Counted from the stretch's first letter, positions 745 to 45,906 are shown. The stretch is DNA of 64,000 nucleotides from Candidatus Kerfeldbacteria bacterium (GCA_043813585.1 JBDRKW010000020.1:265034-329033), one strand, 5' to 3'. Program-made: numbers and translations. The notes: a model not told the origin generated them from the sequence alone.

Positions 745-1389
745 TCAAGATGCGCCATTTGCTTCATCCATTAACTTTTTTGCTTCCGGATATGTCGTCT
801 GATCGAATGACTCATAAAACTGTCCTACCGACATGAATTGATCAGGCGTATCCAGCACAACAAATTCATCTACTATCTTTCTTAGACGTTTTGCAGCATC
901 GATTGAACTGACCGGCACGGCTACCACAACCTTTGCAGCGCTGTTTGCCCGCAATGATTGAATCGCTGCCTGCATGGTATAGCCGGTTGCAATCCCGTCG
1001 TCTACAAGGATAACTGTTTTGCCTTTAACCTGTTGAACTGCGCGGCCTTCGCGCATCATGCGCTCCTTCTCACGAGCCTGCTCCTGTAAATCCGCAATCT
1101 CTACCTTAAGATCCCCTGGCGTTATTCCCAGTGCCGTGAGCACATCATTATCAAAAGCTACATTACCATCAGTATCAATGCTTCCAATCGCGTATTCAGG
1201 ATTTCCAGGCGCTCCAATCTTTTTAGTAACAATCACATCCAGCGGGAGCTTCAGTTTTTTCGCCAGTTCATAGCCCAGCACCACTCCGCCGCGGGGGATT
1301 GCCGCAATTAAACAATCCGGATTCCCGGCATAATGATTGAGCTTTTCAGCCAGCTGACGTCCGGCATCATGTCTGTCTGCAAACGTCAT
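745..1389 (-). CDS. Type I phosphoribosyltransferase-fold protein (COG1926-like predicted PRTase). The ORF track extends it to 1512; the probable start is the Met at 1389.
   Basis: Carries the PRPP-binding motif VILVDDGIATGYTMQAAI. It is about 215 aa when started at MTFADRHDAGRQLAEKL. The upstream extension overlaps the end of the preceding gene. Confidence 0.65.
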   Translation of the reverse strand: MTFADRHDAGRQLAEKLNHYAGNPDCLIAAIPRGGVVLGYELAKKLKLPLDVIVTKKIGAPGNPEYAIGSIDTDGNVAFDNDVLTALGITPGDLKVEIADLQEQAREKERMMREGRAVQQVKGKTVILVDDGIATGYTMQAAIQSLRANSAAKVVVAVPVSSIDAAKRLRKIVDEFVVLDTPDQFMSVGQFYESFDQTTYPEAKKLMDEANGAS

Positions 1390-1399
1390 AATTAAAGTA

Positions 1400-3304
1400 T
1401 TAATTATCCGAACCTGTCTGCGGCGAATTGGCTGGTTTCTTTTTTCGCCGGCGCCGTTTCCGCTTTGCAGTCGGCTTATCCGAAACCGGAAGCGCCCCGA
1501 GCGCATCGCCAAGCGAAGAAAAATCAGTTTTGATGCGCTGGCGCTGTCCCTGTTGCGGCCTTACATCCTGCTTTTCCTTCTTTGTATCCCTCTGTGCAGG
1601 GCGGGACCGCTCCGTCTTTTGAGCTTCCGGCCGCCGCTTCTGGCGGACGGGCTGCGTTTGCTGCGGTTCGTTCTGCTCTTTATCAGCTACAAAACTCAGC
1701 TCTTTTTTGCGCAGCGGCGCCAGGCCGTTCTGTTCTGCCGCTTTTGGCGGCTGAGGAACCTCTTGTTTCTTTGGCGGCATTGGAACATCCTCACGGGAAA
1801 TAGTTGGTTTAGCCGGCGCCGGCGTCGGCGTTGGAGGCGCATCCGCTCTCGGTTTTTGCCGCTGCGGAGGCTTCCCTCCCTTTTTTTCGTATTTCCTTTC
1901 TTCTTTTCGATACGATTTCTTTGCCTGTTGCGGCTGCTCCTCATCATCAGACCCGTCATCATCCATGTTATAGCCGGACCACCGCAGAATTGCCTCTTCT
2001 ACCTTTGCCTGCACATTTGCATATCGTTCCCGGGAAACCTGAATAACCGTCTCCTTATTCCCTGTCTCGCCGGATAGCGGAGGCAGCGTAGTTGCGGAAA
2101 ACGGCTCAGACGCCACACCGTCAATCATCAAACGCAAATAAATTTGATACGACGGCAGCGCCACAAGATCTTCCTGCGTAAACAACGGCAAATATTCCTT
2201 CTCAAGCTCTTCTGCGTCAACCGCACCAACACGGAAAGTAATCATCGTTCCAACATTGCCGAACACCGCAGCTTTAACCTCATCGCTTAACTGCTCAACA
2301 TATTGGTGGGCCATAATCAGATCCAGCCGGTATTTTCTTGCCTCCGATAAAATATTTGCAAAAGCCTCTGTTGAAAAATTCTGAAACTCATCAACATACA
2401 GGAAAAAATCACGGCGTTCCTTTTCCGGAATATCGACGCGGCTCATCGCTGCCAGCTGAATCTTCGTAATCATCATGGCACCGAGCAGCGCGGCATTTTC
2501 CTCGCCAATACGGCCCTTGGACAAATTCATCAAAAGAATCTTCCCGCTGTCCATAATCTCGCGCATATTGATCGTGCTCTTTGGCTGGCCGACAATATTT
2601 CGGATAAGCGAAGAGGACAAAAACTGCCCGACTTTATTCTGGATCGGAGCAATCGCTTCGTTGCGGAACTTTTCCGAATAGTTGTTATATTCGTCAATCC
2701 AGAACGATTTCACGACCGGGTCTGTAATGTTGCGCACCACCTTTTTCCGGTACTTCGCGTCAACAAGCATGCGCGTAACGCCAAGCAGCGTCGAACCCGG
2801 ATATTCAATAAGGGCGAGAATAGAGTTAATCAAAATGTATTCCAAGCGCGGGCCCCAGGAGTCTGCCCAAATCTTCTTAAACACGCCCACAAGGCCGTTT
2901 GAAACCAAATTCTTATATTCCAGCTCCACATTCTCAAGAATGTTAAAGGCAATCGGATTGGCGACATCGGCCGGATTAAAATAGACAACATCATTGATGC
3001 GATTGGACGGAATAAAATCAACAATCTTCTCCACCAAATCGCCGTGCGGATCAACGACTGCCAGCCCGTGTCCGTTGCGGATATCCTGGATAATCATGTT
3101 CTCAAGCATCGTCGACTTCCCCATGCCGGTCTTGCCGATCACGTACATATGGCGGCGGCGGTCATCCCCTTTAATGCCAAAACGCCTGTTCTCATTCCTA
3201 AAATTCGTGCCTGCAAAAAACGTTACCTGTTGTTCGTCAAAGGCGTACGGTTGCGGCTCTTGTTCCGGTTGTTCCGGCTGTGCTGTTGGCTCGTCGTTCA
3301 TCAT
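1400..3304 (-). CDS. Soluble VirD4/TraG/TraD-like type IV coupling protein homologue (FtsK-HerA superfamily P-loop ATPase) with a ~190-aa basic, Pro/Gln/Lys-rich disordered C-terminal tail
   Basis: Walker A is VIGKTGMGKST and it is followed by VVDPHGD. Walker B is FLYVDEFQNF. A TraG-D_C-like segment reads RKYRLDLIMAHQYVEQL...FGNVGTMITFRVG. There are no N-terminal TM helices. Its start overlaps the stop of the upstream gene in an ATGA. Confidence 0.6.
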   Translation of the reverse strand: MMNDEPTAQPEQPEQEPQPYAFDEQQVTFFAGTNFRNENRRFGIKGDDRRRHMYVIGKTGMGKSTMLENMIIQDIRNGHGLAVVDPHGDLVEKIVDFIPSNRINDVVYFNPADVANPIAFNILENVELEYKNLVSNGLVGVFKKIWADSWGPRLEYILINSILALIEYPGSTLLGVTRMLVDAKYRKKVVRNITDPVVKSFWIDEYNNYSEKFRNEAIAPIQNKVGQFLSSSLIRNIVGQPKSTINMREIMDSGKILLMNLSKGRIGEENAALLGAMMITKIQLAAMSRVDIPEKERRDFFLYVDEFQNFSTEAFANILSEARKYRLDLIMAHQYVEQLSDEVKAAVFGNVGTMITFRVGAVDAEELEKEYLPLFTQEDLVALPSYQIYLRLMIDGVASEPFSATTLPPLSGETGNKETVIQVSRERYANVQAKVEEAILRWSGYNMDDDGSDDEEQPQQAKKSYRKEERKYEKKGGKPPQRQKPRADAPPTPTPAPAKPTISREDVPMPPKKQEVPQPPKAAEQNGLAPLRKKELSFVADKEQNEPQQTQPVRQKRRPEAQKTERSRPAQRDTKKEKQDVRPQQGQRQRIKTDFSSLGDALGALPVSDKPTAKRKRRRRKKKPANSPQTGSDN

Positions 3305-4992
3305 ACAGGAAGGTTAGGTGGAGGCGTGCCCCCGCTAGTAGGTGTTGAATCCGGCCGGTCAGCCTGATTGCCGGTTTGAGGTGATGGCGGCGCCAGTGGA
3401 ACTGCTTCCTCTCCGCGTATCGGCACTTCCCGTACGGGAGTCGGCTGTTCAACCGCCTTAACGCCCGGCGGCAACCCCGGCATGGAATGCAGCTGTTCAG
3501 GAACAGGCTGCTCCACCGGCGCAAAACGTTCGGTTACCGGCGGCTCTCCTGGCTCCGGCGGCGGCGGCGGGGCGGGAATGGTTTCTGAAACCGGTTCAGG
3601 TTCCGGCGTTACCACCTGCTCAGTTTGTGCATCAGGTAAAGTTTGTACGGCAATACGATCATGGCCTTTGCGCAGACGCTCAAACGGAGATGCGCCAACA
3701 GGAAGATGGGCAGGCGGCTCCGCTTTTTTGGAAACCGTCTTGGAAACCAACGGCGCTTTGACCTCCTGAACCGGAAAATGAAATAAAGTTGCGATTTCCA
3801 CATGCGACATCACATAAGACGACTCGCCGATCCAGTTCGAGCGATACTTATATCCTGCCATTAATTTATTTTTGCGCGCTTCGGAACGCCGCTTCGGAAA
3901 AAAATATTCCGGCCCGCTCGTAACGGTGCGGCCGCCGGCTGTAAACGAATTTAAATCAAGGGAATTAAACTGCTTGAACGCCCCAAAAATCGAACCGACC
4001 ACGCGGTAGGAATTCATTATCTCTTTTGGAGCAATGTACACAAAACGAAATTTCGTCTGGAAATGAAGCCGCGCCGCTTTCTTCTGCACCTCTTCAACAA
4101 TGATCTTTTCCCCTGTCGTCAAACCCATGAAGCTCCCATCCATTTCATCCTTATCCTGCCGTTGTTCCTTGTATCCTCCTTCCGGAGCCGTGAACACGGA
4201 ATCATGAACCGTTTCCAGCGTCTTTTGCGTCGCGTTCGTCAGGTAATCAGCAATATCCTTCTTATATTCCTGCGGTTTACCGATTAAGTCATTAACCTCT
4301 CGTTTGCTTTTCTCCCGCCATTCATGCCCTTCAGGTGTTATAACAAACTGAAGCCAGACCTGTTCTCCCGGCTGCAGCCTGCTGAGCAGTTCCAGTACAG
4401 CTGCCATTGGGTCCGCAAACAGGCCGGATAATGAATGCTCAAAAAATTCATACGTCTTAATCGGGTAGGCATCGCTGTTTGCCAGAGTAAATTCAGTCCC
4501 CCATAAATCATACTCCTTGTTCGGATATTCCTGCGGCACATTCTGCACATAATCCTCTACCTCGATAATCTCCGCATCCGCATACTGCGCATACACCGCG
4601 CCTTTCACCAGTTCCGCATTGTAATCATCGCACCGGATAAAATACTGGATATACCCGTCAATACTGACGATTTCCAGGGAAAATTTATCCTGAATGACGC
4701 CCAGCCAGTACGCTTCACGCTTCGTAGGGCTAAAATGCACGCCATGCAGCGCTGAAATAATATTCTCGACCGAACGCATGGTGGTTTCATGCATTTTCGG
4801 AACATCGATGGCCAACAAAACGAATTTCTTCTTCATATCGTACTTGTTCTGAAGCCAGTTCACCCAGCCGGTCCACATCATCCAGATTAACAGAGGAAAG
4901 AAAACAATAAGACCGCCCCACTGAAAGAAGAGTTGAATAATGGCTAACGGGCTAGACCCGAGACCGGCAATGTCAGTCCACTCAAATGGCAT
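3301..4992 (-). CDS. Hypothetical membrane protein: an N-terminal hydrophobic hairpin, a large soluble domain and a Pro-rich C-terminal tail. It is translationally coupled to the coupling-ATPase gene downstream.
   Basis: N-terminus is LAIIQLFFQWGGLIVFFPLLIWMMWTGWVNWL. I recognise no family for the rest. The C-terminal tail contains PAPPPPPEPGEPP. There is a 4-bp ATGA overlap with 1400..3304. Confidence 0.5.
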   Translation of the reverse strand: MPFEWTDIAGLGSSPLAIIQLFFQWGGLIVFFPLLIWMMWTGWVNWLQNKYDMKKKFVLLAIDVPKMHETTMRSVENIISALHGVHFSPTKREAYWLGVIQDKFSLEIVSIDGYIQYFIRCDDYNAELVKGAVYAQYADAEIIEVEDYVQNVPQEYPNKEYDLWGTEFTLANSDAYPIKTYEFFEHSLSGLFADPMAAVLELLSRLQPGEQVWLQFVITPEGHEWREKSKREVNDLIGKPQEYKKDIADYLTNATQKTLETVHDSVFTAPEGGYKEQRQDKDEMDGSFMGLTTGEKIIVEEVQKKAARLHFQTKFRFVYIAPKEIMNSYRVVGSIFGAFKQFNSLDLNSFTAGGRTVTSGPEYFFPKRRSEARKNKLMAGYKYRSNWIGESSYVMSHVEIATLFHFPVQEVKAPLVSKTVSKKAEPPAHLPVGASPFERLRKGHDRIAVQTLPDAQTEQVVTPEPEPVSETIPAPPPPPEPGEPPVTERFAPVEQPVPEQLHSMPGLPPGVKAVEQPTPVREVPIRGEEAVPLAPPSPQTGNQADRPDSTPTSGGTPPPNLPV

Positions 4993-5015
4993 TTATCTTT
5001 GTTTGATTTACTCCT

Positions 5016-6185
5016 TTAGCTGGAGGCCTCATCGGCAGCTTCTGTCTGTATTTTCTCCTCCGGTTGATGACTCTCTCCAGAATCCTCTGCCAATGCATAC
5101 CTCCCATCCTTGGTCTTATTAAATAGTGACTTGTCAGTCAATGCGAGATGGATAGTATTTTTTTTCACGATGCGCTGCTTCAGAACCATATCAACAATAT
5201 CCGAACGCTTCATCGGCTGGCCTGCCTGCTTAAGGATATCCTGAATCACGCTGGCGACAACGCCCTCTTTAAATCCCCATTCTTTCAACGCGTAAATGCC
5301 CCGTCCGACTAAAACGTATTCGTCGTTGAGGATGAGCTCGTTATGAACAGTCGGAGGATACGCAGCTTTCTTAAAGATTTTCGTAATGCGTTTGGCAATC
5401 TCTTCAAAATGCATCGGCTGGCCTTCTTTTTGCAGAACAAGAAATACGCGGTCATTCATCCGCTTCGGCTGAATTAATCCCCAGTCAGCCAGTCCATATT
5501 CGTCAAACGGGTTTCGCGCGAGCCTGGTTGAAACCTCCAGGTACGATGCAACTGAATCTTCAGTCAGCTTCTGGTCATGGTTCTTGTAGAACTCTGTTTC
5601 CTGCAATTTTTCATATAGTTCATCAAACGTTGCCGGTTTTCCAATTTGTTCAACCAGCTTCTCCAGTTCCTGGATGCCCTGATCAATAAAATCCATTGAA
5701 GTCAGGCGCAGTTTCCAGCCCGGATGGTATTTCTTGGTTTTTGGAATCTCCTCGAGCTTTTCATCTAAGAGCTGCGTAATGATAAACGAGACAGCCAGCT
5801 TATACTGCTCACTGTCCTTGTGAACGCCTAAAAGCGTCTCATACAGCATCTGCTCAGTTATCAGCCCGCCATGTTTATCGACCAGAGTTGAAACAAGATG
5901 TTCGACAGGCCGCATGATCTCCGAAAAGGCGCTGCCAGATTTTATTTTTGCGATTGATTGATTCTCGATTTGGCGAATGCGCTCGCGCGTGACGTTGTAA
6001 AACGATCCGATTGTTTCCAAAGTTTCCTTGCCTTGGTCAGTCAGACCATACCTCCGCCGTACAACATCCGCTTCTTTGGAGCCCAAAGACTTCAGGAGCG
6101 TATTCACAACCTCGAGAGGATTAAAATCCTGCTTTTCTTGGTCCTCCTTGCTTGAAAGGACCTTATCTAGAATAGAATCGGTCAT
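5016..6185 (-). CDS. Sigma-70 region 4 domain protein with two C-terminal HARE-HTH-like (RNAP delta-subunit-like) modules
   Basis: The region 4.2 HTH is ADVVRRRYGLTDQGKETLETIGSFYNVTRERIRQIENQSIAKIK. HARE-HTH-like motifs are EYGLADWGLIQP and VLVGRGIYALKEWGF. A consensus promoter lies directly upstream. Confidence 0.55.
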   Translation of the reverse strand: MTDSILDKVLSSKEDQEKQDFNPLEVVNTLLKSLGSKEADVVRRRYGLTDQGKETLETIGSFYNVTRERIRQIENQSIAKIKSGSAFSEIMRPVEHLVSTLVDKHGGLITEQMLYETLLGVHKDSEQYKLAVSFIITQLLDEKLEEIPKTKKYHPGWKLRLTSMDFIDQGIQELEKLVEQIGKPATFDELYEKLQETEFYKNHDQKLTEDSVASYLEVSTRLARNPFDEYGLADWGLIQPKRMNDRVFLVLQKEGQPMHFEEIAKRITKIFKKAAYPPTVHNELILNDEYVLVGRGIYALKEWGFKEGVVASVIQDILKQAGQPMKRSDIVDMVLKQRIVKKNTIHLALTDKSLFNKTKDGRYALAEDSGESHQPEEKIQTEAADEASS

Positions 6186-6211
6186 AGGTGTGATTAAATT
6201 GTATCGTCGCT

Positions 6212-6240
6212 AGTATACCATTTCCTTGCAAACGTGTCAA
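6212..6240 (-). promoter_or_regulatory. Sigma-70-type promoter for the 5016..6185 gene: TTGACA, 17-bp spacer, TGgTATACT
   Basis: On the minus strand the -35 TTGACA is at 6240..6235 and the extended -10 TGGTATACT at 6220..6212. That places the TSS about 20 nt upstream of the ATG at 6185. Confidence 0.6.
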
Positions 6241-6324: not shown

Positions 6325-6759
6325 ATGCCTGATATGGACATACCAACGCCTCCGGCGGCTAATGCGCCGGAAAATACCTTCGAAACAACCGGTACAGTCA
6401 TGAGTACTTCGAATGCAAAGATGATTGACTTTGATGAAACAATAGCAATGCTGCAAACCGGCATTGAATATCTCCAGGAAACACGCTCAGACTTTGAAAC
6501 AACAGGCCCTCAAAAATGGATTTCTGACACTGCCGATCACATGAACGCAGCACTGGACAATATCCAGGATCTTGAAACCAACCACATGGATGACCTGGCC
6601 AAGTGGAAAAACGAGTCGGGTGAAATATGCGATGTGCTTGTTCGCATGCAGGATGAAGCAGGATTTGATGAAGCCGTACGCTTATTCACTAGAGCGCTCG
6701 ATTCGTTCGACGACTATTTCAATAAACACATCAATCTGCTGAAAAGCAAAAGGAAATAG
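6325..6759 (+). CDS. Hypothetical acidic protein of 144 aa; the only plus-strand gene in the window
   Basis: A clean ORF transcribed divergently from the sigma-4 gene and convergent with secF. I recognise no motif. Confidence 0.5.
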   Translation: MPDMDIPTPPAANAPENTFETTGTVMSTSNAKMIDFDETIAMLQTGIEYLQETRSDFETTGPQKWISDTADHMNAALDNIQDLETNHMDDLAKWKNESGEICDVLVRMQDEAGFDEAVRLFTRALDSFDDYFNKHINLLKSKRK

Positions 6760-6768
6760 TATTTTTTA

Positions 6769-7662
6769 TTACCTCTTGAGCAACCGCTGCCCTACCAAAA
6801 GCAACGGACTTGCTATAAAAATTGATGAATAGGTTCCGGTAAGAATACCAAGTATCAGCGCCAGCACAAACCACTGGATGGATGCGCCGCCGAACAGATA
6901 CAGCGCAAGCAGGACAAGCAATGTGGAAAAGGATGTGTTTATCGAACGCACCAGCGTCGTATTGATGCTCTCGTTTATAATTTCCTTGAACGATTTCTTT
7001 GCGCGGTCTTTAAGCCCCTCTCTGATGCGGTCATACACGACAATCGTGTCATGAACCGAAAAACCGAGAATCGTCAGCAATGCAGTGACAAACAAAGTAT
7101 CGACCTGTACGTCCATAAAGTGCCCCAGTAGAATAAATGCCCCGACTACGAGGAGAATATCATGCGCAAGTGCCACAATGGCTCCGAGCCCAAACACCCA
7201 TGATGGAACCGGTCCGTTCGAGACCTTGCGAAAGGCGTACGAGATGTACCCGATAATCGCAAATAGGACGAGGAGAAGCGCTATGACAGCCTTTCTCTTG
7301 AGCTCTTCACCAAGCGTCGGGCCGATGCTGGTATAGTTCTCCTCTACGACATCCTGGTCTTTATACGCATCCAAAATCTGCTGGCGGGTCTTATTTTCAA
7401 TATGCTGCATTTTGAGGATCAGATTTGATTCACCTGCAGTCTGAATGCGCATATCACTCACACCAAGGTCAGTCACGGTGGTCGTAATATTTTCTACAGA
7501 CGGTCGCGATTCTATGTCGGGAAAACGCAACTCCATCGAGGTTCCGCCGGTAAAATCAATACCGAGGTTCAATCCCCATACAAACCACAATACTACGGTT
7601 GCCGCAATGCCAATGATAGAGAGGGTACTCCAATATTTCGTTGTATGGATAATCCTGTACAT
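6769..7662 (-). CDS. secF: Protein translocase subunit SecF
   Basis: Has a six-TM SecD/SecF fold. Starts MYRIIHTTKYWSTLSIIGIA and contains FTGGTSMELRF. It lies immediately downstream of secD. Confidence 0.9.
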   Translation of the reverse strand: MYRIIHTTKYWSTLSIIGIAATVVLWFVWGLNLGIDFTGGTSMELRFPDIESRPSVENITTTVTDLGVSDMRIQTAGESNLILKMQHIENKTRQQILDAYKDQDVVEENYTSIGPTLGEELKRKAVIALLLVLFAIIGYISYAFRKVSNGPVPSWVFGLGAIVALAHDILLVVGAFILLGHFMDVQVDTLFVTALLTILGFSVHDTIVVYDRIREGLKDRAKKSFKEIINESINTTLVRSINTSFSTLLVLLALYLFGGASIQWFVLALILGILTGTYSSIFIASPLLLVGQRLLKR

Positions 7663-7664
7663 AT

Positions 7665-9347
7665 CTATTCTTTCTTTCGCTTATTGATTCCGTACCACCA
7701 CGTATTTTGCAGCCGGATAACGCCGAGTAAGTTCCGCGTAATGGTAATGGCTGAAAACATTGAAATGAGGATTCCGATAGCAAGCGTTACTGCAAAACCG
7801 CGAATCAGCGATGAACCGAACCAATACAGGATCAGGCAGGTAATGAGCGAAGAAACGTTCGAATCGCGGATTGATGTCCATGCGCGCTTAAATCCGTCGT
7901 CAATACTCTGGCCGATCGGCTTGCCGCGCCGAAGCTCTTCCTTGAAACGCTCAAATATTAGGACGTTTGCGTCCACAGCCATGCCGATCGATAAAATGAA
8001 TCCCGCAATTCCGGCAAGGGTCAGCGTAACCGGGAACAGCTTGAACACCGCAAGTACAACCAAGGAATAGATCGTCAGTGCCAGAACAGACATTACTCCC
8101 GGAAGCCGATAGTATACGATCATGAAAATCGAAAGCAGGACCAGCCCGAATATGCCAGCAAACAGGCTGCGTTCAATGGATGCCTGGCCGAGTGTCGGAC
8201 CGACGTTCTGCTGGCTGATCAGTTCGACAGGTACCGGCAATGCACCTGCATTCAGCCGCTGCGCCAGCAGTTTGGATTCTTCGAGCGTAAAATTGCCCGA
8301 GATAACCGCTTCGCCGCCGGTAATCTCCTGCTGCACCACCGGAGCACTGATAACCACGCCATCAAGATAAATCGCGACCGTTTTGCCGACATTATCTTTT
8401 GTGATCTGCGCAAACAGCTCTCGGCCCTCTTTATTGAACTGCAATGAAACGGTCGGGAGCCCGGTATTCGGGTCAAACGTCACATCCGCGTTTTCCAGCT
8501 GCTCGCCGGTCAGCGGCGTCGATTCATAGGTCGGCTCTAATAAAAGAGGTTGCTCAGATTCCTTCACAAACAAAATATGGTGAGCGCGCGCGATTTTCCC
8601 TACTTCTGTTCCTTCCTCATTATTTGCAGGCTCCTCGCGCAATTCATCCACCCTTATTATATGGTATCCAAACAGCGTTTCAACAAGCTCCGGATAAACA
8701 ACTCCAACTTCGGCTTTAGTAAATACAACGTCATCAAACTCATCCACCATCATACCCTGGCTAAATTCGCCCAAATCGCCGCCCTGTTCAGCCGATCCTG
8801 GGTCGTCAGAATATTCTGTTGCCAATGCGGCAAAATCAGCATCCGCCTTTTGCGCCTTTTTCAAAACAGTGTTCGCCTGTTTTTTGATCTTCTTATTCTC
8901 TTCCCGAACCTTTTCCCTCTCTTCATCCGTAAGTTCCGGCGGCTCGCCCTCGGTCTTAAACTCCAAAAGCGGCGTCTCACCGATTCGGTTAATCGCCTCT
9001 GTAATATCCGTTACGCCCGGCAATTCAACAAGAACGCGCCATTCGTCGCCTGAACGGACCGTCTGGATGTTCGGCTCGCCCACGCCAAACGCGTTAATGC
9101 GCCGTTCAATCACATCACGAACGCCTTCAAGCGCTGATGTGCGTTCTGTCTCGTCAATCTGCGAAACATCCGCTTTATACAAAAGTGAAGTCCCGCCCTG
9201 CAAATCCAGGCCAAGATGAACTTTAATTTCACGAAATGTATCGCCAAATGAGATATCCGGCCCTTTTGGATAATCAACAACACCAGCCAAAACAGTCAAT
9301 ACAAGTATGCCCAGGAGCGATAATCTGATTTTCGTACGCGCTTTCAT
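7665..9347 (-). CDS. secD: Protein translocase subunit SecD with a parvulin (PpiC)-type PPIase-like domain inserted in periplasmic domain P1
   Basis: SecD TM core includes [11 protein letters not shown] and [24 protein letters not shown]. Residues ~126-240 read [64 protein letters not shown], which matches the PrsA/SurA parvulin signature. Confidence 0.9.
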
Positions 9348-9384: not shown

Positions 9385-10830
9385 TCAATAGTGGGTCCAC
9401 ACCAAAGTGCCAATATCAGCCCAATTATAAAGGAATTTTGCGTCATTATAGCGCATGTTGACGCAACCATGGCTCATTGGGTGGCCGAAATTATTATGCC
9501 AATAAGCAGAATGCAGATAGAACCGCATTCCATTGCCGGCTGTGGCAAAGGCAAGGTTATACGGCGTATTCGGCAGGTAGTAACCCGGGCCTGAATACAA
9601 ATGGTTTAAGATCTTGTTAAATACGGAAAATTCGCCGACAGGAGTTGGCGTGCCCGGCAAACCTGAAGAAATAAGGAAAACATTGCGCAGGTACCCGTCC
9701 TCCCACACATATTCGATCTGTTCAGTAAGGTTCACTTCAATGTAACGCGCCGGCCGCTCCGGATCCGCTTTGGGATGCTGGAGGCCCGGACTGATAATAA
9801 TCTCCGGTGTTTGATCTTTGTCTATAGATGCAACGGAAATATTCATTCCGCCGCGGAAACCTTCTTCAAATAAATATTGCGAATCCACGTCAAGCGGGGT
9901 CCCGTCGCCCCTGAAATATTTTACCTCTGCCTGCTGGTCCCCTGCCGGAACGACCGCGATCTCCTCTGTACCGTCGCCATCAGCGTCGATTGCTGCCATC
10001 TCAACGCCGCTCCGGAATTCGCGCGACCATGCCTGGAATTCCGCCAGCACGGGGTACTCGCGATTTGCGTCAATGCGGTAACCCTTAATCCAGGTTTGCC
10101 CCCCGTTATCAAAACCAACATACAGGTCGCTATGCTCGCCGCCGCCTGTGTTTATGGCCGCCGCAATCAAGCCATAGGTATCTGTTTCTGAAAACGGCGA
10201 AATATCCGGTGCCTGCATAACCCCGTTGCTGTCCAGAATGCGCACCAGAGGAAACAATCCGCCAACGGTTGCTGCAATAATTTCCTCTTCCGGGCCGTTT
10301 AATACATTTCCAACTGCAATGGCAGTGCCAGCCGGAAACTCCGGAAACGCTTCAAACGTGCCGGCTGTATCCGTATCTTCCTGTAGCATCCCATCCAGGA
10401 TCCATACTTTTGATGAAGCGCCGTCCGGAACTGAAACGATTATCTCGTCTTCACCGTCACCGTCCACGTCGCCGCATTCGACATCAAGATAGGTCCAGTC
10501 GTTTGTTCCGTGGAAAATTGCCGTTTGCGATATGAGTGAATGGTCGCCCCTGAACACTTTAATAATGCCCAGCGCATCCGGTCCGCCGGCCTGCGCAACA
10601 ACGATTTCGTTAATGCCATCGCCGCCGACATCACCGACCGCAACATCAACGCCGCCCTGATAGGACTCGTCGAATGCCAGCCATGAATCCTGAACCTCGC
10701 GCGTTTCAAAATCAATCACCTGGATCTCCGGCGCGCGGTTCGGCACGGCTGCGGCAGAAAATGGAACACACAGGAAGATAACCGGCACCCACCAGAACAC
10801 GGTTCGCAGATATGGTCGTTGTTCGGACAT
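9385..10830 (-). CDS. Secreted protein: FG-GAP/VCBS beta-propeller repeats fused to a C-terminal L,D-transpeptidase (YkuD) catalytic domain
   Basis: Has an N-terminal signal peptide. The repeat motifs include VGDVGGDGINEIVV, GDVDGDGEDEII and IDADGDGTEEIAV. The C-terminus FYLHSAYWHNNFGHPMSHGCVNM carries the His/Cys YkuD motif. Confidence 0.75.
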   Translation of the reverse strand: MSEQRPYLRTVFWWVPVIFLCVPFSAAAVPNRAPEIQVIDFETREVQDSWLAFDESYQGGVDVAVGDVGGDGINEIVVAQAGGPDALGIIKVFRGDHSLISQTAIFHGTNDWTYLDVECGDVDGDGEDEIIVSVPDGASSKVWILDGMLQEDTDTAGTFEAFPEFPAGTAIAVGNVLNGPEEEIIAATVGGLFPLVRILDSNGVMQAPDISPFSETDTYGLIAAAINTGGGEHSDLYVGFDNGGQTWIKGYRIDANREYPVLAEFQAWSREFRSGVEMAAIDADGDGTEEIAVVPAGDQQAEVKYFRGDGTPLDVDSQYLFEEGFRGGMNISVASIDKDQTPEIIISPGLQHPKADPERPARYIEVNLTEQIEYVWEDGYLRNVFLISSGLPGTPTPVGEFSVFNKILNHLYSGPGYYLPNTPYNLAFATAGNGMRFYLHSAYWHNNFGHPMSHGCVNMRYNDAKFLYNWADIGTLVWTHY

Positions 10831-10929: not shown

Positions 10930-12387
10930 TTATTCGTGGACAATGACCTTGTCGCCGACATCGGCCCAGTCATAGATCCATTGGGAGTTTTCCAGATTGA
11001 CGTTGATGCAGCCGTGGCTCATGACATGTCCGAAGTTGTTGTGCCAATAGGCATAGTGAATATAGTGGTGTTGGCGAAACCGCAAATTGTTCACCACGCC
11101 AGGCAGGTCATAATTGTCCGGGTGGCCCGGTCCGTACGTCCATTCATAATCATGCACCGGCAATTTAGCGAGCACCTCGGTTTCCCCGGTCGGCGTCGCG
11201 TACCGCGCAACTCCGGTAGACACATAAAATTCTTTTTCTTTCACACCGTTCCGGTAGGCCCGTAAAATCTGTTCGGACAAATCCACATCAATATATTTGA
11301 AAATGTCCGTCCTGCCTTCCACGATTTTCTTTTGCGGTATAGTGACTATTTCAATCTTTGCGTCTGCATCCACATTTCCCGCTGTAACCGATACGCCGCC
11401 CCGAAAATCTTCCTCATACGCAAGAAAGCCAGGATTATAAAGCTTTCCCTTCTTCCCCTTAAAGATACGAATGTGCGGTCCGCCGGACTGCCGAGGCGCA
11501 GTAATAATTTCATCAATACCGTCCATATCAACATCCGCACTCGCTAGGTTTACGCCGCCTCTGAAGTTAGCGTCATACGCCAGGAACTCGCTGATGATCG
11601 TATCATTCGCATCTGCCTTGTACACCTTGATGCGCGGCTCGCCAAACGAATGGATGGCCGTCACAACCTCTTCATCCTTCCCGCCATCAACATTCGCGGT
11701 CGCAACTGAAACGCCGCCCCGGTCTGTATCGGCAAACGGAAAAAAATCGATACCAATATAATTTCCATATTTATCAAAGACACGAACATGGGGTCCGCCG
11801 CCGGGCCCGGCGCCGGTGATAATATCTGCGCTCCCGCGTCCGTCAACATTCCCAACTGCAACATTTACGCCGCCGCGGAAATGTTCATCATATGCAAAGA
11901 ACCCCGGGGTAAATTTCTCTTTCCCTTTCATGTTAAACACGCGCACCTGCGGTCCGCCGCCGCGCCCTGCTCCAACAACAATCTCATCTTTACCATCGCC
12001 ATTCAGGTCGCCTGCAGCAACATTGACGCCCACGCGGACATTATCGCCAAATGCCAAAAATTCGGAGACTTTCGCACCGCCAGGCGTGAATACGGTGACG
12101 GTCGGGCTTGATCCCGGCCCGGCGCCGACGATAACTTCATCTTTTCCGTCGCCGTTGAAGTCTCCGGTTGCGACCGTCCCCCCATTTTCGTTTGCCTCAT
12201 CAAACGCCAGAAACGATTCCTGCTGGCTGGCGACAGTTCCTTTGTTTTGCATTTCAAAAACGCGGACTTCCGGCTGGCGGTAATCCGCGGCGTGCACTGG
12301 CTGTGCGGTAACTGCAACAAACGCAGCAAGTGCGCAGATGCCACCGCCAACAAACAGCACAGGTCTAAAATTACGATGCCTTATCAT
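10930..12387 (-). CDS. Secreted FG-GAP-repeat plus L,D-transpeptidase protein; tandem paralogue of 9385..10830
   Basis: Has a signal peptide and about six FG-GAP repeats (GDFNGDGKDEVIVGAGPG, GDLNGDGKDEIVVGAGRGGGP, and others). The C-terminus reads HYAYWHNNFGHVMSHGCINV. Confidence 0.75.
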   Translation of the reverse strand: MIRHRNFRPVLFVGGGICALAAFVAVTAQPVHAADYRQPEVRVFEMQNKGTVASQQESFLAFDEANENGGTVATGDFNGDGKDEVIVGAGPGSSPTVTVFTPGGAKVSEFLAFGDNVRVGVNVAAGDLNGDGKDEIVVGAGRGGGPQVRVFNMKGKEKFTPGFFAYDEHFRGGVNVAVGNVDGRGSADIITGAGPGGGPHVRVFDKYGNYIGIDFFPFADTDRGGVSVATANVDGGKDEEVVTAIHSFGEPRIKVYKADANDTIISEFLAYDANFRGGVNLASADVDMDGIDEIITAPRQSGGPHIRIFKGKKGKLYNPGFLAYEEDFRGGVSVTAGNVDADAKIEIVTIPQKKIVEGRTDIFKYIDVDLSEQILRAYRNGVKEKEFYVSTGVARYATPTGETEVLAKLPVHDYEWTYGPGHPDNYDLPGVVNNLRFRQHHYIHYAYWHNNFGHVMSHGCINVNLENSQWIYDWADVGDKVIVHE

Positions 12388-43615: not shown

Positions 43616-44473
43616 CTACCGCGGAAAACAGCTGAAATCAGACCCATTTGTCAAGCATGTTACCGGCCCGTCCTCATCAGTGCGAAATACTGCACTACCG
43701 AATGACTCCAGGCGCCGAACCACTTCTGCATGCGGATGGCCGAACGTGTTGTCTTTGCCAACAGAAATAAGCGTAATTTGACTGTTCATAATTTCCAACA
43801 ACCGCCTGCTAGTGCTCGTACGGCTGCCGTGATGGCCGGCTTTAAGTATGTCGACTTCAGCAATTTCATCGCCGAAGCGGCCAAGAACCTGCTCTTCTAT
43901 CTCGACCGGAGCATCACCCGTAAACAAGGCAGAAAAATCGCGGTAGCGAAGGAGGAAGACAACGCTGTCGTCATTGATATCAGGGTGGAAATTAGGCGGA
44001 TCGGGATGAAAAAACAGAAGATCAAGGCCCTCCTCCACATGAAGCAACCATCCCTGGTGCGCCTGCAGCACCTCTACGCCGTCCGATGCCCACGTTGCAA
44101 GCTCGTCTGAAAAATTCGTCCCGCTGGCAACGCCGCTTGTTATCAGCGTTTTAATCTCGTACGTATCAGGCAACTCGGTCAATCCGGCAATATGGTCTGC
44201 ATCCTCATGCGATGCAATCATCAGTTCGATCGTATGGTCGGTCGGCGGCATCACGCGGCCGAGCTCCGACACGACGCTTCGGTCCGGACCCCCGTCAACC
44301 ACAATATCCATCCCGCCCGGCGTCCTGATATGGAACGCGTCCCCCTGCCCGACATCCAGCATGTGAATTTCCAGTTGGTCGCTTGTGGCCGGAACCCATT
44401 GGCCGCGAACATACGCGACAAATGAAAGAACGAGCACAATAATGATGGTAACTGATGGTATCGAACGCTTCAT
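43616..44473 (-). CDS. comEC: ComEC C-terminal-type MBL-fold metallo-hydrolase encoded as a separate ORF with its own signal-anchor. The ORF track extends it to 44665; the start was chosen as the Met at 44473.
   Basis: The MBL domain reads HMLDVGQGDAFHI...HEDADHIAGL...AGHHGSRTST. An ATG at 44473 gives MKRSIPSVTIIIVLVLSF, a TM anchor. It overlaps the stop of the ComEC channel ORF in an ATGA. Confidence 0.7.
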   Translation of the reverse strand: MKRSIPSVTIIIVLVLSFVAYVRGQWVPATSDQLEIHMLDVGQGDAFHIRTPGGMDIVVDGGPDRSVVSELGRVMPPTDHTIELMIASHEDADHIAGLTELPDTYEIKTLITSGVASGTNFSDELATWASDGVEVLQAHQGWLLHVEEGLDLLFFHPDPPNFHPDINDDSVVFLLRYRDFSALFTGDAPVEIEEQVLGRFGDEIAEVDILKAGHHGSRTSTSRRLLEIMNSQITLISVGKDNTFGHPHAEVVRRLESFGSAVFRTDEDGPVTCLTNGSDFSCFPR

Positions 44474-45906
44474 CGCTCTGTTGCCAGTACGCGCACTGCG
44501 GCCAGCACAACAACACCCAGCGCGCCTATGAAGACCAGCGGACTGAATTGCGGGATACTCAATGATGCATTCGGAATCTCGGCCGCCCGTTGAACAACCC
44601 CAACCATGAGATGCAGGGAATAATACAGCGGGATGCCGGCGAGCGATGCGGCAGCCGGCCAGCATATCGCCGTTATCACAACAATGACAGCCATGGTTAA
44701 TACGATAGGCATCAGCGGGACAAGGATGATATTCAACGGCAGCGCTATCAATGAAAACTGATGGAACGAATACGCAATAACAGGAGCGGTTGCAATAATT
44801 GCACTCAAGGATGTTGCAGCAGCACCGCGCAGTCCAAGAACATTCGGAATGAAGCGGCAGTATCGCTCAAACCGCTTTGAAAAAACAATTATTCCCGCAG
44901 TTGCGCCAAACGACAGCTGAAAGCCGGCATCATAGAATAGCAACAGCGGGTTCAATGCCAGCATGCCCGTTGCAGCCAGCACAAGCAAACGCAGCGACTG
45001 ATTTCGCCGCCCGAACAATTCCGCAACCAGCACCGCGCTGCCAAACATCGCAGCCCTGATTGCAGATGATTGCATGCCGGAAGCGAAGACATACGCAATG
45101 AGAAATAAAATCACTGAAACGATGAGCCAACGTCGTCTGATTCGCATCTGCTTCAGAACTATCGCCGCCATCTGGGTGAGCAGCGATACATGCAATCCGG
45201 AAATGACCAATAAATGCGATGTGCCTGTTGCACGAAAGGCATCCATTATTTCAGCCGGAATTGCGCGCTTGTCCCCGAACAGTGCGCCAAGCACGATGGT
45301 CTGTTCCGGCGGTGCAACAACGTACTGAAACGATGATTTCAATCGCTGCTTCGCATCAAGAATAATTGTCGACAACGACGTTTCGCGGCCGGCAAGATGG
45401 ATACTGGGGCGGTAGCACTGCGCTGTAATGCCGTAACGCTCCAGGTATTTATCGTACCGAAAGCCGTCAAACGGCTCGGGCTGCTCAAGTTCACACGACA
45501 ACTTCACCATGTCGCCAACCCGGTAGCGCGGCTGCAATGATGCGGTTACCAGCACCAGACCGTCTACCGCGTCTGTTTGTACAACCAACCGTTGCGATGA
45601 AAGACGCAGCTCCGGTTCGCGGACGATTATACCGGCAGCCGATTCCACCCAGCCGAACGCTTCAGAATGCACTTGCTCCTGGCGCGCACCTCGCAGCATC
45701 CCTAGCGAACATGCCAATCCACATATTGCAAAAATACAAACAGTCGGCTGCCGCTTTCCCAACAGATAAACCGCAGCTGATACGGCCGCCGCGCCGACCA
45801 ATACATTGAACCGAACATCAAACATCTGACCAGCGCAGATTCCAACAATAAACCCGGCGCAGGCTAGCAGTAGCTTGTTCGATTTATGCAATTGCGAATG
45901 AAACAT
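44470..45906 (-). CDS. comEC: ComEC/Rec2 membrane channel part (DUF4131 plus competence domain)
   Basis: The ComEC core motif is DKRAIPAEIMDAFRATGTSHLLVISGLHVSLL, and the protein is polytopic. Confidence 0.8.
   Translation of the reverse strand: MFHSQLHKSNKLLLACAGFIVGICAGQMFDVRFNVLVGAAAVSAAVYLLGKRQPTVCIFAICGLACSLGMLRGARQEQVHSEAFGWVESAAGIIVREPELRLSSQRLVVQTDAVDGLVLVTASLQPRYRVGDMVKLSCELEQPEPFDGFRYDKYLERYGITAQCYRPSIHLAGRETSLSTIILDAKQRLKSSFQYVVAPPEQTIVLGALFGDKRAIPAEIMDAFRATGTSHLLVISGLHVSLLTQMAAIVLKQMRIRRRWLIVSVILFLIAYVFASGMQSSAIRAAMFGSAVLVAELFGRRNQSLRLLVLAATGMLALNPLLLFYDAGFQLSFGATAGIIVFSKRFERYCRFIPNVLGLRGAAATSLSAIIATAPVIAYSFHQFSLIALPLNIILVPLMPIVLTMAVIVVITAICWPAAASLAGIPLYYSLHLMVGVVQRAAEIPNASLSIPQFSPLVFIGALGVVVLAAVRVLATER

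Follow-up and report, generated by a model that had tools for sequence, protein, structure and literature searches.

The gene cluster and its promoter

The 64-kb stretch of DNA analyzed here, hereafter the window, derives from a metagenome-assembled genome of Candidatus Kerfeldbacteria, within the Patescibacteria or Candidate Phyla Radiation (CPR), where the exact window proteins are on record. Near its start lie four tightly packed genes, all on the minus strand, as are the other window features given below by exact nucleotide positions unless the plus strand is named: a gene for a protein of 389 amino acids (aa) combining sigma region 4 with winged helices (5016..6185; the sigma4 protein), one for a 563-aa membrane protein (3301..4992; the partner), one for a 634-aa ATPase resembling the type IV coupling proteins, or T4CPs (1400..3304), and one for a protein of the phosphoribosyltransferase (PRTase) fold (745..1389, 214 aa counted from the ATG). 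The partner and the ATPase are the main subject of this report. All four open reading frames (ORFs) lie where an earlier note, made from the sequence alone, had placed them, and its account of how they are joined held as well. The stop codon of the partner gene overlaps the start codon of the ATPase gene by 4 nt in an ATGA, and ahead of the sigma4 gene a sigma-70-type promoter (6212..6240) is read directly in the sequence, with TTGACA at 6240-6235, a 17-nt spacer and TGgTATACT, the -10 hexamer of which occupies 6217-6212. Promoter-like sites between 500 and 6900 are in total as numerous as expected by chance, and this is the sole one there to match at 11 of 12 positions with an extended -10 TG. 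Among the related loci introduced below, 58 of 76 have a site matching at 10 or more of 12 positions ahead of the sigma4 gene, against 4 of 76 coding-region controls, and this site mostly takes the form TTGACA-17-TATAxT with the TG; the promoter belongs to the conserved unit. A terminator scan of the minus strand between the four genes found no convincing terminator, so the PRTase gene could be co-transcribed with the rest of the operon.

The T4CP-like ATPase

The ATPase matches the Pfam families TrwB_AAD_bind (PF10412, 39.3 bits against a cutoff of 20.5), T4SS-DNA_transf (PF02534, 28 bits against 20.1), DUF87 and TraG-D_C, with a Pfam alignment covering profile positions 14-311 of 387, a span in which the region of the T4CP all-alpha domain falls. 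In a profile search of the PDB, significant or nearly significant matches were limited to TrwB (E 1.9e-7) and, as the second match, DotL (E 0.004); the search recovered no VirB4, FtsK or EccC at E values up to 10. The conserved core (aa 25-445, 1970..3232) holds a Walker A motif GKTGMGKST (aa 57-65, nt 3110-3136), VVDPHGD, a Walker B motif FLYVDE (aa 301-306, nt 2387-2404; LYVDE at aa 302-306) and QYVEQL, all of them invariant across relatives, and the invariant columns in 28 diverse relatives are G57, K58, G60, G62, K63, D305, E306, H333 and Q334. More than 8,000 homologues were recovered; 27 diverse relatives are 58-69% identical overall, and tblastn with the core in 80 loci gave 64-74%, by which measure the 420-residue core is unusually conserved. 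The specific models, on the other hand, score low: the NCBIfam T4CP equivalog cutoffs (TraD, CD1115, TrbC) are all missed by far (best SXT_TraD, 48.5 bits against 366; conju_CD1115 44.9 against 250), the VirB4 model TIGR00929 scores 16 bits against a cutoff of 643, PF03135 gives no match, and a hidden Markov model (HMM) of the ATPase finds TrsE at 15.5 bits and does not match TrwK.

No Kyte-Doolittle window reaches 1.6 anywhere in the 634 residues, and hence no transmembrane (TM)-like segment is present; the N-terminus is acidic and rich in proline and glutamine. At the other end, aa 446-634 (189 aa, 1403..1969) form a basic, low-complexity, disordered tail with an isoelectric point (pI) of 10.2, 47 K+R against 28 D+E, and 26 prolines. 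The motifs and Pfam matches, the missing N-terminal anchor and the basic tail of about 190 residues thus agree with what the earlier note had read here, and by sequence the protein is a TM-less T4CP homologue with intact catalytic motifs. Tails of relatives are variable, basic and of low complexity, some bear a zf_Tbcl_2 zinc finger, and many end in PG(Q/E)xVxF. The window protein, which ends in ...KKKPANSPQTGSDN, is without this terminal peptide, and the PRTase gene starts 10 nt past its stop codon; the end of the tail may have been lost when the PRTase gene came to adjoin it. The ATPase tree groups by candidate-phylum label, as expected under vertical inheritance.

The membrane partner

Homologues of the partner number at least 1,258, and a search of the full library gave 3,335 cluster representatives at 50% identity. 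For the window protein itself (P0001), as for most homologues, the protein database lists a precomputed PF26449.1 annotation; the partner had no match in NCBIfam or in a Pfam copy lacking PF26449, and a PDB sequence search with its profile gave none at E values up to 1. It begins with a hydrophobic segment (aa 14-44, 4861..4953; Kyte-Doolittle windows up to 2.0), a predicted membrane anchor, and the basic KYDMKKK that follows suggests that the rest of the protein is cytoplasmic. The single hydrophobic stretch of the earlier note is there, but the hairpin into which it had been read is not clear, the stretch being modeled as one long helix (aa 15-54). From aa 431 to the end (3304..3702) runs the Pro-rich tail that had also been described, acidic and disordered, with 34 prolines in 133 aa (26%) and a pI of 4.6. 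It closes on the conserved peptide PPNLPV (nt 3304-3321); in the family this peptide reads (A/P)PxNLP plus 0-3 residues, and 108 of 133 members have [NDK][LI]P among their last 9 residues.

Between anchor and tail lies a cytoplasmic domain (aa 56-405, 3778..4827). Residues 1-440, modeled by AlphaFold2 with 60 homologues, gave a mean pLDDT of 83.9, and the structure search that the earlier note had proposed for this protein gave a pointed answer, in that Foldseek ranked 13 chains of TrwK, a VirB4 protein, first (probability 0.93-1.00). As neither structure-match list contains a P-loop ATPase (TrwB, FtsK, HerA or the VirB4 C-terminal domain 4AG5), the part matched is the VirB4 N-terminal domain (NTD), TrwK residues 15-400. 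The domain is thus predicted to adopt the VirB4-NTD fold, and the relation shows in structure alone: when the partner alignment was compared by hhalign with TrwK (R388, sequence NC_028464) and with TrsD and TrsE (pGO1), probabilities stayed below 1%, and the partner HMM matched none of the three. EccE is also matched, much more weakly than VirB4. In R388 the NTD of VirB4 serves in VirB4 dimerization; the membrane protein VirB3 wraps around it, and it binds the tails of VirB8 (PMC9259494).

Conservation of the unit and fusion of its parts

We surveyed related loci from both sides. The ATPase-centered survey used an ATPase alignment as query on one genome per species and yielded at least 597 loci, of which the best 80 were analyzed; the partner-centered one, a reciprocal scan of metagenomes seeded with the membrane protein, added 80, for 160 in all. 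The best 80 ATPase loci all come from Patescibacteria-type genomes, under labels that include Kerfeld-, Falkow-, Moran-, Uhr-, Magasanik-, Doudna- and Buchananbacteria and Parcubacteria, with some plainly wrong labels in third-party annotation (TPA) records. Many TPA bins are titled 'uncultured Gammaproteobacteria', 'Bdellovibrionales' or 'Planctomycetota' (L004, L008, L013, L015-L018, L020, L028, L040, L041 and others), and such non-Patescibacterial labels on bins carrying the operon are probably mislabels in the public record.

A partner homologue, detected by HMM, lies immediately upstream of the ATPase gene on the same strand in 57 of the 80 ATPase-centered loci; reciprocally, the ATPase gene directly follows the partner gene in 57 of the 72 partner-centered loci with room for it. 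The intergenic gaps are mostly 2-30 nt, the window having an overlap. Directly upstream of the partner stands the sigma4 gene, in about 45 of 80 and 40 of 69 loci of the two surveys, respectively. A PRTase homologue, on the other hand, occurs in the flanks of none of the 160 loci. The conserved unit therefore comprises three genes in the order sigma4, partner, ATPase, and the PRTase is a chance neighbor. The four-gene cluster of the earlier note, which had proposed a test of co-occurrence, accordingly stands for its first three genes but not for the last, although the PRTase fold assigned to the latter is right (Pfam Pribosyltran, E 3e-21). We also considered whether this protein could be a ComFC-like competence protein and dropped the idea, as it is a generic Pribosyltran protein that is never syntenic.

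These counts bear directly on the proposal that all four genes, PRTase included, make up one module for DNA or protein translocation or for anti-phage defense. Tight packing behind one strong promoter, without a convincing terminator between genes, would suit it, as would weak matches in PADLOC (mad8 at 44 bits, HerA at 35, MzaA in the sigma4 region at 36 and ShosT for the PRTase at 26). These matches are, however, partial and at the level of superfamilies, the partner has no match in PADLOC-DB 2.0, and the families are near-universal and vertically inherited, unlike defense islands, with no compositional anomaly. Taken with the consistent absence of the PRTase, this makes the four-gene module very improbable. 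The defense-type function suggested earlier was rejected, what resembles it being superfamily noise around core families found throughout the phylum; the PRTase and the defense reading can be removed from consideration.

The tie between partner and ATPase is further strengthened by fusion. In L045 a single ORF of 834 aa (L045:11191-13692) joins a TM segment, a partner domain (HMM E 1.6e-31) and an ATPase domain 42% identical to the window ATPase; it is a Rosetta-stone fusion with the partner first and the motor second, and it lies about 5.6 kb downstream of a split pair in the same locus. A further divergent copy (43% identity) was observed at L131:12072-13277, on the minus strand and cut at the end of the locus, so that some genomes carry split and fused forms together. 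In other lineages the ATPase tail is joined to the zf_Tbcl_2 finger, which makes a second link by domain fusion.

The 23 ATPase loci without a large partner upstream fall mostly into two monophyletic sub-clades nested in the ATPase tree. In the 'Nrd' clade the order is NrdR-NrdD-NrdG, a small ORF, the ATPase and a DnaQ-like exonuclease, with FtsZ 4-5 kb upstream of the ATPase, and a protein of 80-125 aa with one strong TM helix always precedes the ATPase. This small protein (L003, L007, L009-L011, L013 at 9603-9953, L014, L019, L023, L025) has a conserved amphipathic helix (…LLEKNLE…KYIKKY…) and no Pfam match. In the 'HIT' clade the order is HIT-NUDIX-ATPase, followed just downstream by a gene for a small zinc-finger protein. 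A protein of about 120 aa is encoded there near the 3' end of the ATPase gene in L022, L037, L038, L044 and L053; the copy at L053:12135-12506 has two treble-clef zinc fingers (zf_Tbcl_2, CxxC-x17-CxxC), and the other four share its N-terminal sequence. Because the small single-TM protein of the 'Nrd' clade takes the place of the partner so regularly, a separate membrane anchor is a recurring theme, and a dedicated TM protein beside a TM-less ATPase is the rule.

The sigma4/winged-helix protein

Pfam finds Sigma70_r4 (aa 30-82) and HARE-HTH in the 389-aa protein, and an AlphaFold2 model (pLDDT 89.7) shows sigma region 4 (aa 23-83, nt 5937-6119) followed by four winged-helix domains (aa 87-365, nt 5091-5927). 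The earlier note had described sigma region 4 with two HARE-HTH modules; the fusion stands, but there are four winged helices, the third of which (around aa 243-300, nt 5286-5459) is the only one that Pfam recognizes. Pfam and NCBIfam detect no sigma regions 1-3 in it, so this is not a sigma factor, and the NCBIfam model of the RNA polymerase delta subunit scores 34.9 bits against a cutoff of 42. Sigma region 4 and HARE-HTH modules contact RNA polymerase in other proteins. Their combination here makes it a reasonable inference, by analogy, that the sigma4 protein probably binds RNA polymerase, DNA or both.

Chromosomal setting

Upstream of the operon lie secF (6769-7662) and secD (7665-9347), which form a block at 6769..9347. 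A Pfam scan of 44 ORFs across the 64 kb further identified SecA, MurB, MurC, MurG, FtsW, LepA, MurJ, Tgt and Lgt, pentose-phosphate enzymes, DsbA-like proteins, TrxB, FBA, GlpX, ComEC and GlmS, and a release factor, ribonucleotide reductase, FtsZ and FtsA; the Mur genes and FtsW occupy 16-21 kb of the window and FtsZ/FtsA 58-60 kb. GC content is flat, with no compositional anomaly, and scans for tRNAs and Rfam families gave no matches. The window is core chromosome of a housekeeping kind and not an island.

This setting speaks to a further explanation, that the cluster is the remnant of a conjugative element or integrative and conjugative element (ICE) whose other genes lie outside the window. 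A T4CP-family ATPase with a TraG-D_C-like segment would suit such an origin. The Pfam scan, however, found no relaxase, VirB4 or integrase among the 44 ORFs, as the earlier note had stated for the vicinity, and no phage gene either, and the cluster is not inside an ICE or prophage; nor do VirB6, VirB8 or pilin genes adjoin the partner-ATPase pair. The same synteny recurs over many candidate phyla with a taxonomy-congruent ATPase tree, and relaxases in 3,035 Patescibacteria genomes number 109 against 5,713 T4CP homologues (PMC12102498). A mobile element was rejected on the gene content and flat GC of the window, and an origin in one is exceedingly improbable.

The Sec genes are part of the conserved surroundings. 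In about 28 of the 80 ATPase-centered loci secD-secF come next upstream, and in the partner-centered survey SecF was found in 39 of 80 loci, with SecA further upstream in at least 16. T4CPs also deliver proteins, as DotL does, and in type VII secretion EccC, an FtsK-like ATPase, is paired with EccE. One can envisage a motor for protein export or membrane biogenesis that works beside Sec and is comparable to DotL or to EccC with EccE. A block of SecA ... SecD-SecF-(sigma4)-partner-ATPase in many lineages is consistent with it, as are the second place of DotL, a T4CP with protein substrates, among the PDB matches, the EccE resemblance of the partner, and the short peptides conserved at the C-termini of the two proteins, which suggest peptide docking. 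It fits poorly, however, with an ATPase of one P-loop domain, an EccE match far below that to VirB4 and the absence of WXG100-like or other candidate substrate genes conserved nearby, and the Sec synteny itself may be plain ancestral gene order; we regard an export motor as quite unlikely.

Published homologues and the presumed Southlakia counterpart

Quinonero-Coronel et al. 2025 counted 5,713 VirD4-like T4CP homologues in 2,918 of 3,035 Patescibacteria genomes (96%), 148 of them near virB4, with VirB4 itself in 2,417 genomes (80%), and proposed possible exaptation for the orphan homologues (PMC12102498). In Southlakia epibionticum, Wang et al. 2023 described an essential cluster for a type IV secretion system (T4SS) without recognizable coupling and relaxase proteins (PMC10633639). 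The same work lists SEML1_0293, a 921-aa protein with a P-loop domain at residues 361-795 only, and the adjoining SEML1_0294, with Sigma70_r4, HARE-HTH and three winged domains, and its transposon sequencing (Tn-seq) tables flag both families as core and Patescibacteria-enriched (PMC10633639). From its domain coordinates and synteny, SEML1_0293 is presumably a fused partner-ATPase form. In Tn-seq it was non-essential at all three time points, even though its normalized reads dropped from 5,817 to 1,372, and SEML1_0294 was essential (PMC10633639). We observed in Table S1 of that study a second T4CP/FtsK-like ATPase, SEML1_0142 (1,019 aa, 'TraM recognition domain'), which is essential and is preceded by SEML1_0141, a 139-aa hypothetical protein essential at the two later time points; this arrangement echoes the small protein and ATPase of the 'Nrd' clade.

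In the literature searched, T4CPs in Patescibacteria came up only in these two T4SS papers, and no description turned up of the partner family, of its VirB4-NTD fold or of the split and fused architectures. Hence 'undescribed', the word that the earlier note had used, holds for the partner but not for the orphan T4CP homologues, already published (PMC12102498), nor for the ATPase and sigma4 families, already tabulated (PMC10633639). What is new is the identity of the partner and the VirB4/VirD4-hybrid architecture; what had been noticed is the orphan ATPases.

Proposed function

We lean towards the view that this is a lineage-specific Patescibacterial housekeeping operon, beside which the PRTase stands by accident, and that its core is a two-gene, membrane-anchored ATPase made of a VirB4-NTD part and a T4CP-type motor, which threads a polymer. 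The partner supplies one TM helix, the domain of predicted VirB4-NTD fold and a disordered Pro-rich linker with its terminal PxNLP peptide, and the ATPase a TrwB/DotL-like motor and a basic disordered tail. Between them they reproduce the VirB3/VirB4 arrangement, in which anchor, NTD and motor follow one another, on two polypeptides that are sometimes fused. In such a complex the partner may anchor and oligomerize the motor at the cytoplasmic membrane, as the NTD does in VirB4, and the motor, probably oligomeric like its relatives, would draw on ATP hydrolysis to recruit a polymer substrate or thread it. The pair most likely works as a membrane-anchored machine that uses ATP to handle or translocate nucleic acid or protein. 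Support for the architecture is good; as to the substrate, we infer that nucleic acid or nucleoprotein is the most probable, as the T4CP type of the motor, its polybasic tail and the zinc fingers in the tails of relatives suggest. The pair may act alone or as the coupling ATPase missing from the Patescibacterial T4SS cluster, the latter role being appealing since a VirB4-like NTD could take up the docking position of VirB4.

Several observations weigh against this proposal. The conserved neighbors are Sec genes rather than DNA-processing genes, and T4CPs may carry protein. Partner and ATPase are unlinked in about a quarter of loci, and 15 partner loci have no ATPase downstream, showing for instance the order sigma4-partner-glycosyltransferase. 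T4CP homologues reach 96% of genomes against 80% for VirB4 (PMC12102498). The presumed counterpart SEML1_0293 is non-essential although the T4SS genes are essential, which argues against an obligatory T4SS component, and since the sigma4 gene is essential and the ATPase gene is not, the two may be functionally independent despite their shared operon. Lastly, it is from domain coordinates that the first 360 residues of SEML1_0293 are presumed to represent the partner family.

Some of the same facts could be accommodated by a T4SS-independent DNA translocase for chromosome segregation, division or budding, in an FtsK-like role with a separately anchored T4CP-type motor. The ATPase is a member of the FtsK-HerA superfamily with a basic tail, its family is more widespread than VirB4, the window holds Mur genes, FtsW, FtsZ and FtsA, and in the 'Nrd' clade FtsZ lies near the ATPase. 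Set against this, FtsK_SpoIIIE (PF01580) stays below its cutoff (17.2 bits against 24, over aa 16-72 only), the FtsK gamma domain is not matched, the proximity of division genes is loose and not established as conserved, and in Southlakia the presumed fused counterpart is non-essential, SEML1_0142 being the other, essential FtsK-like ATPase. We therefore consider a segregation or division translocase unlikely.

The proposal of a membrane-anchored housekeeping ATPase also has a stronger form, which we consider rather doubtful, namely that the hybrid of VirB4 anchor and NTD with a T4CP motor is a hitherto unrecognized nucleic-acid transporter found throughout the phylum, stand-alone or docking on the T4SS, with the sigma4 protein as an adaptor to DNA or RNA polymerase. 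Patescibacterial symbionts cannot synthesize nucleotides. If true, the hybrid would be central to nucleic-acid exchange or uptake between symbionts and hosts, and would represent a surviving intermediate on the path by which coupling proteins evolved from VirB4.

The ultra-small Patescibacteria, which live attached to other microbes, account for much of the diversity of bacteria. In the one species that has been tested genetically their T4SS is essential, yet its cluster is without a coupling protein, and thousands of orphan T4CP homologues are encoded elsewhere. That these ATPases usually come with a dedicated partner of predicted VirB4-NTD fold, sometimes fused, offers a structural hypothesis for how they reach the membrane and possibly the T4SS. 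It also provides a data point on the evolutionary split of VirB4 and VirD4, and makes the partner the gene to delete or tag.

Other features of the window

Downstream of the PRTase gene lies the gene for ClpB, with its N-terminus at about 695. A second promoter-like site (720-748), TTGACT-17-TACCAT, matches at 9 of 12 positions with an extended -10 and stands just upstream of the ClpB start; with this site of its own, ClpB would not depend on read-through from the PRTase gene. On the plus strand, between the operon promoter and secF, a divergent ORF (6325-6759), perhaps not a real gene, would encode a very acidic 144-aa protein (pI 4.3); it has no Pfam match, none of the first 80 related loci carries a homologue, and it was left out of the module. 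Between SecA and SecD we found two tandem paralogues (9385-10830 and 10930-12387) with FG-GAP repeats and a C-terminal YkuD L,D-transpeptidase domain, homologues of which sit at the same place in 11 related loci. Further along, ComEC (43616-45906) is present as two ORFs, 44470-45906 with DUF4131 and Competence domains and 43616-44665 with a metallo-beta-lactamase domain, which overlap by about 195 nt and may reflect a frameshift, an assembly error or a truly split ComEC.

Comparison with known systems

The TM-less T4CP homologue, its partner and the sigma4 protein bear out the earlier impression that this is not a standard conjugation, competence or division arrangement, and each part departs from its relatives in its own way. 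The sigma4 protein shares region 4 with sigma-70 factors without their regions 1-3. The delta subunit of RNA polymerase has an N-terminal HARE-HTH and then a long acidic tail; in comparison with delta (RpoE of Firmicutes), the window protein has four winged helices instead of one and a short acidic tail. From EccC/EccE of type VII secretion the pair differs in the single P-loop domain of the ATPase, as against the multi-domain EccC.

Among Patescibacterial proteins, the window ATPase matches the kind of orphan homologue counted previously, VirD4-like and mostly far from virB4 (PMC12102498), and it shares with SEML1_0293/0294 its adjacency to a sigma4/HARE-HTH gene, the ATPase there being presumably fused (PMC10633639). 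The membrane partner, the split and fused forms, the tail peptides and the secDF-linked synteny are described in neither study (PMC12102498, PMC10633639). With the T4CPs at large (VirD4, TrwB, TraD and DotL) the ATPase shares the homologous P-loop motor, a TraG-D_C-like segment and a long C-terminal tail as in TraD. It differs from them in that the motor polypeptide has no N-terminal TM domain, in that relaxase and T4SS gene linkage is absent from the 64-kb window, and in belonging to a family that is chromosomal, near-universal and highly conserved within one phylum. Within the limited literature searched, we know of no report of VirB4-NTD-like pairing or fusion for canonical T4CPs.

The closest parallel in layout is VirB4 (TrwK) with VirB3, where the same succession of anchor, NTD and motor is found. 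Here, NTD and motor are mostly encoded apart, sequence places the motor with the T4CPs, and the partner has no detectable sequence similarity to the VirB4 NTD or TrsD. The single-polypeptide layout of VirB4, represented in the window by two ORFs, is nevertheless matched by the fused protein at L045:11191-13692.

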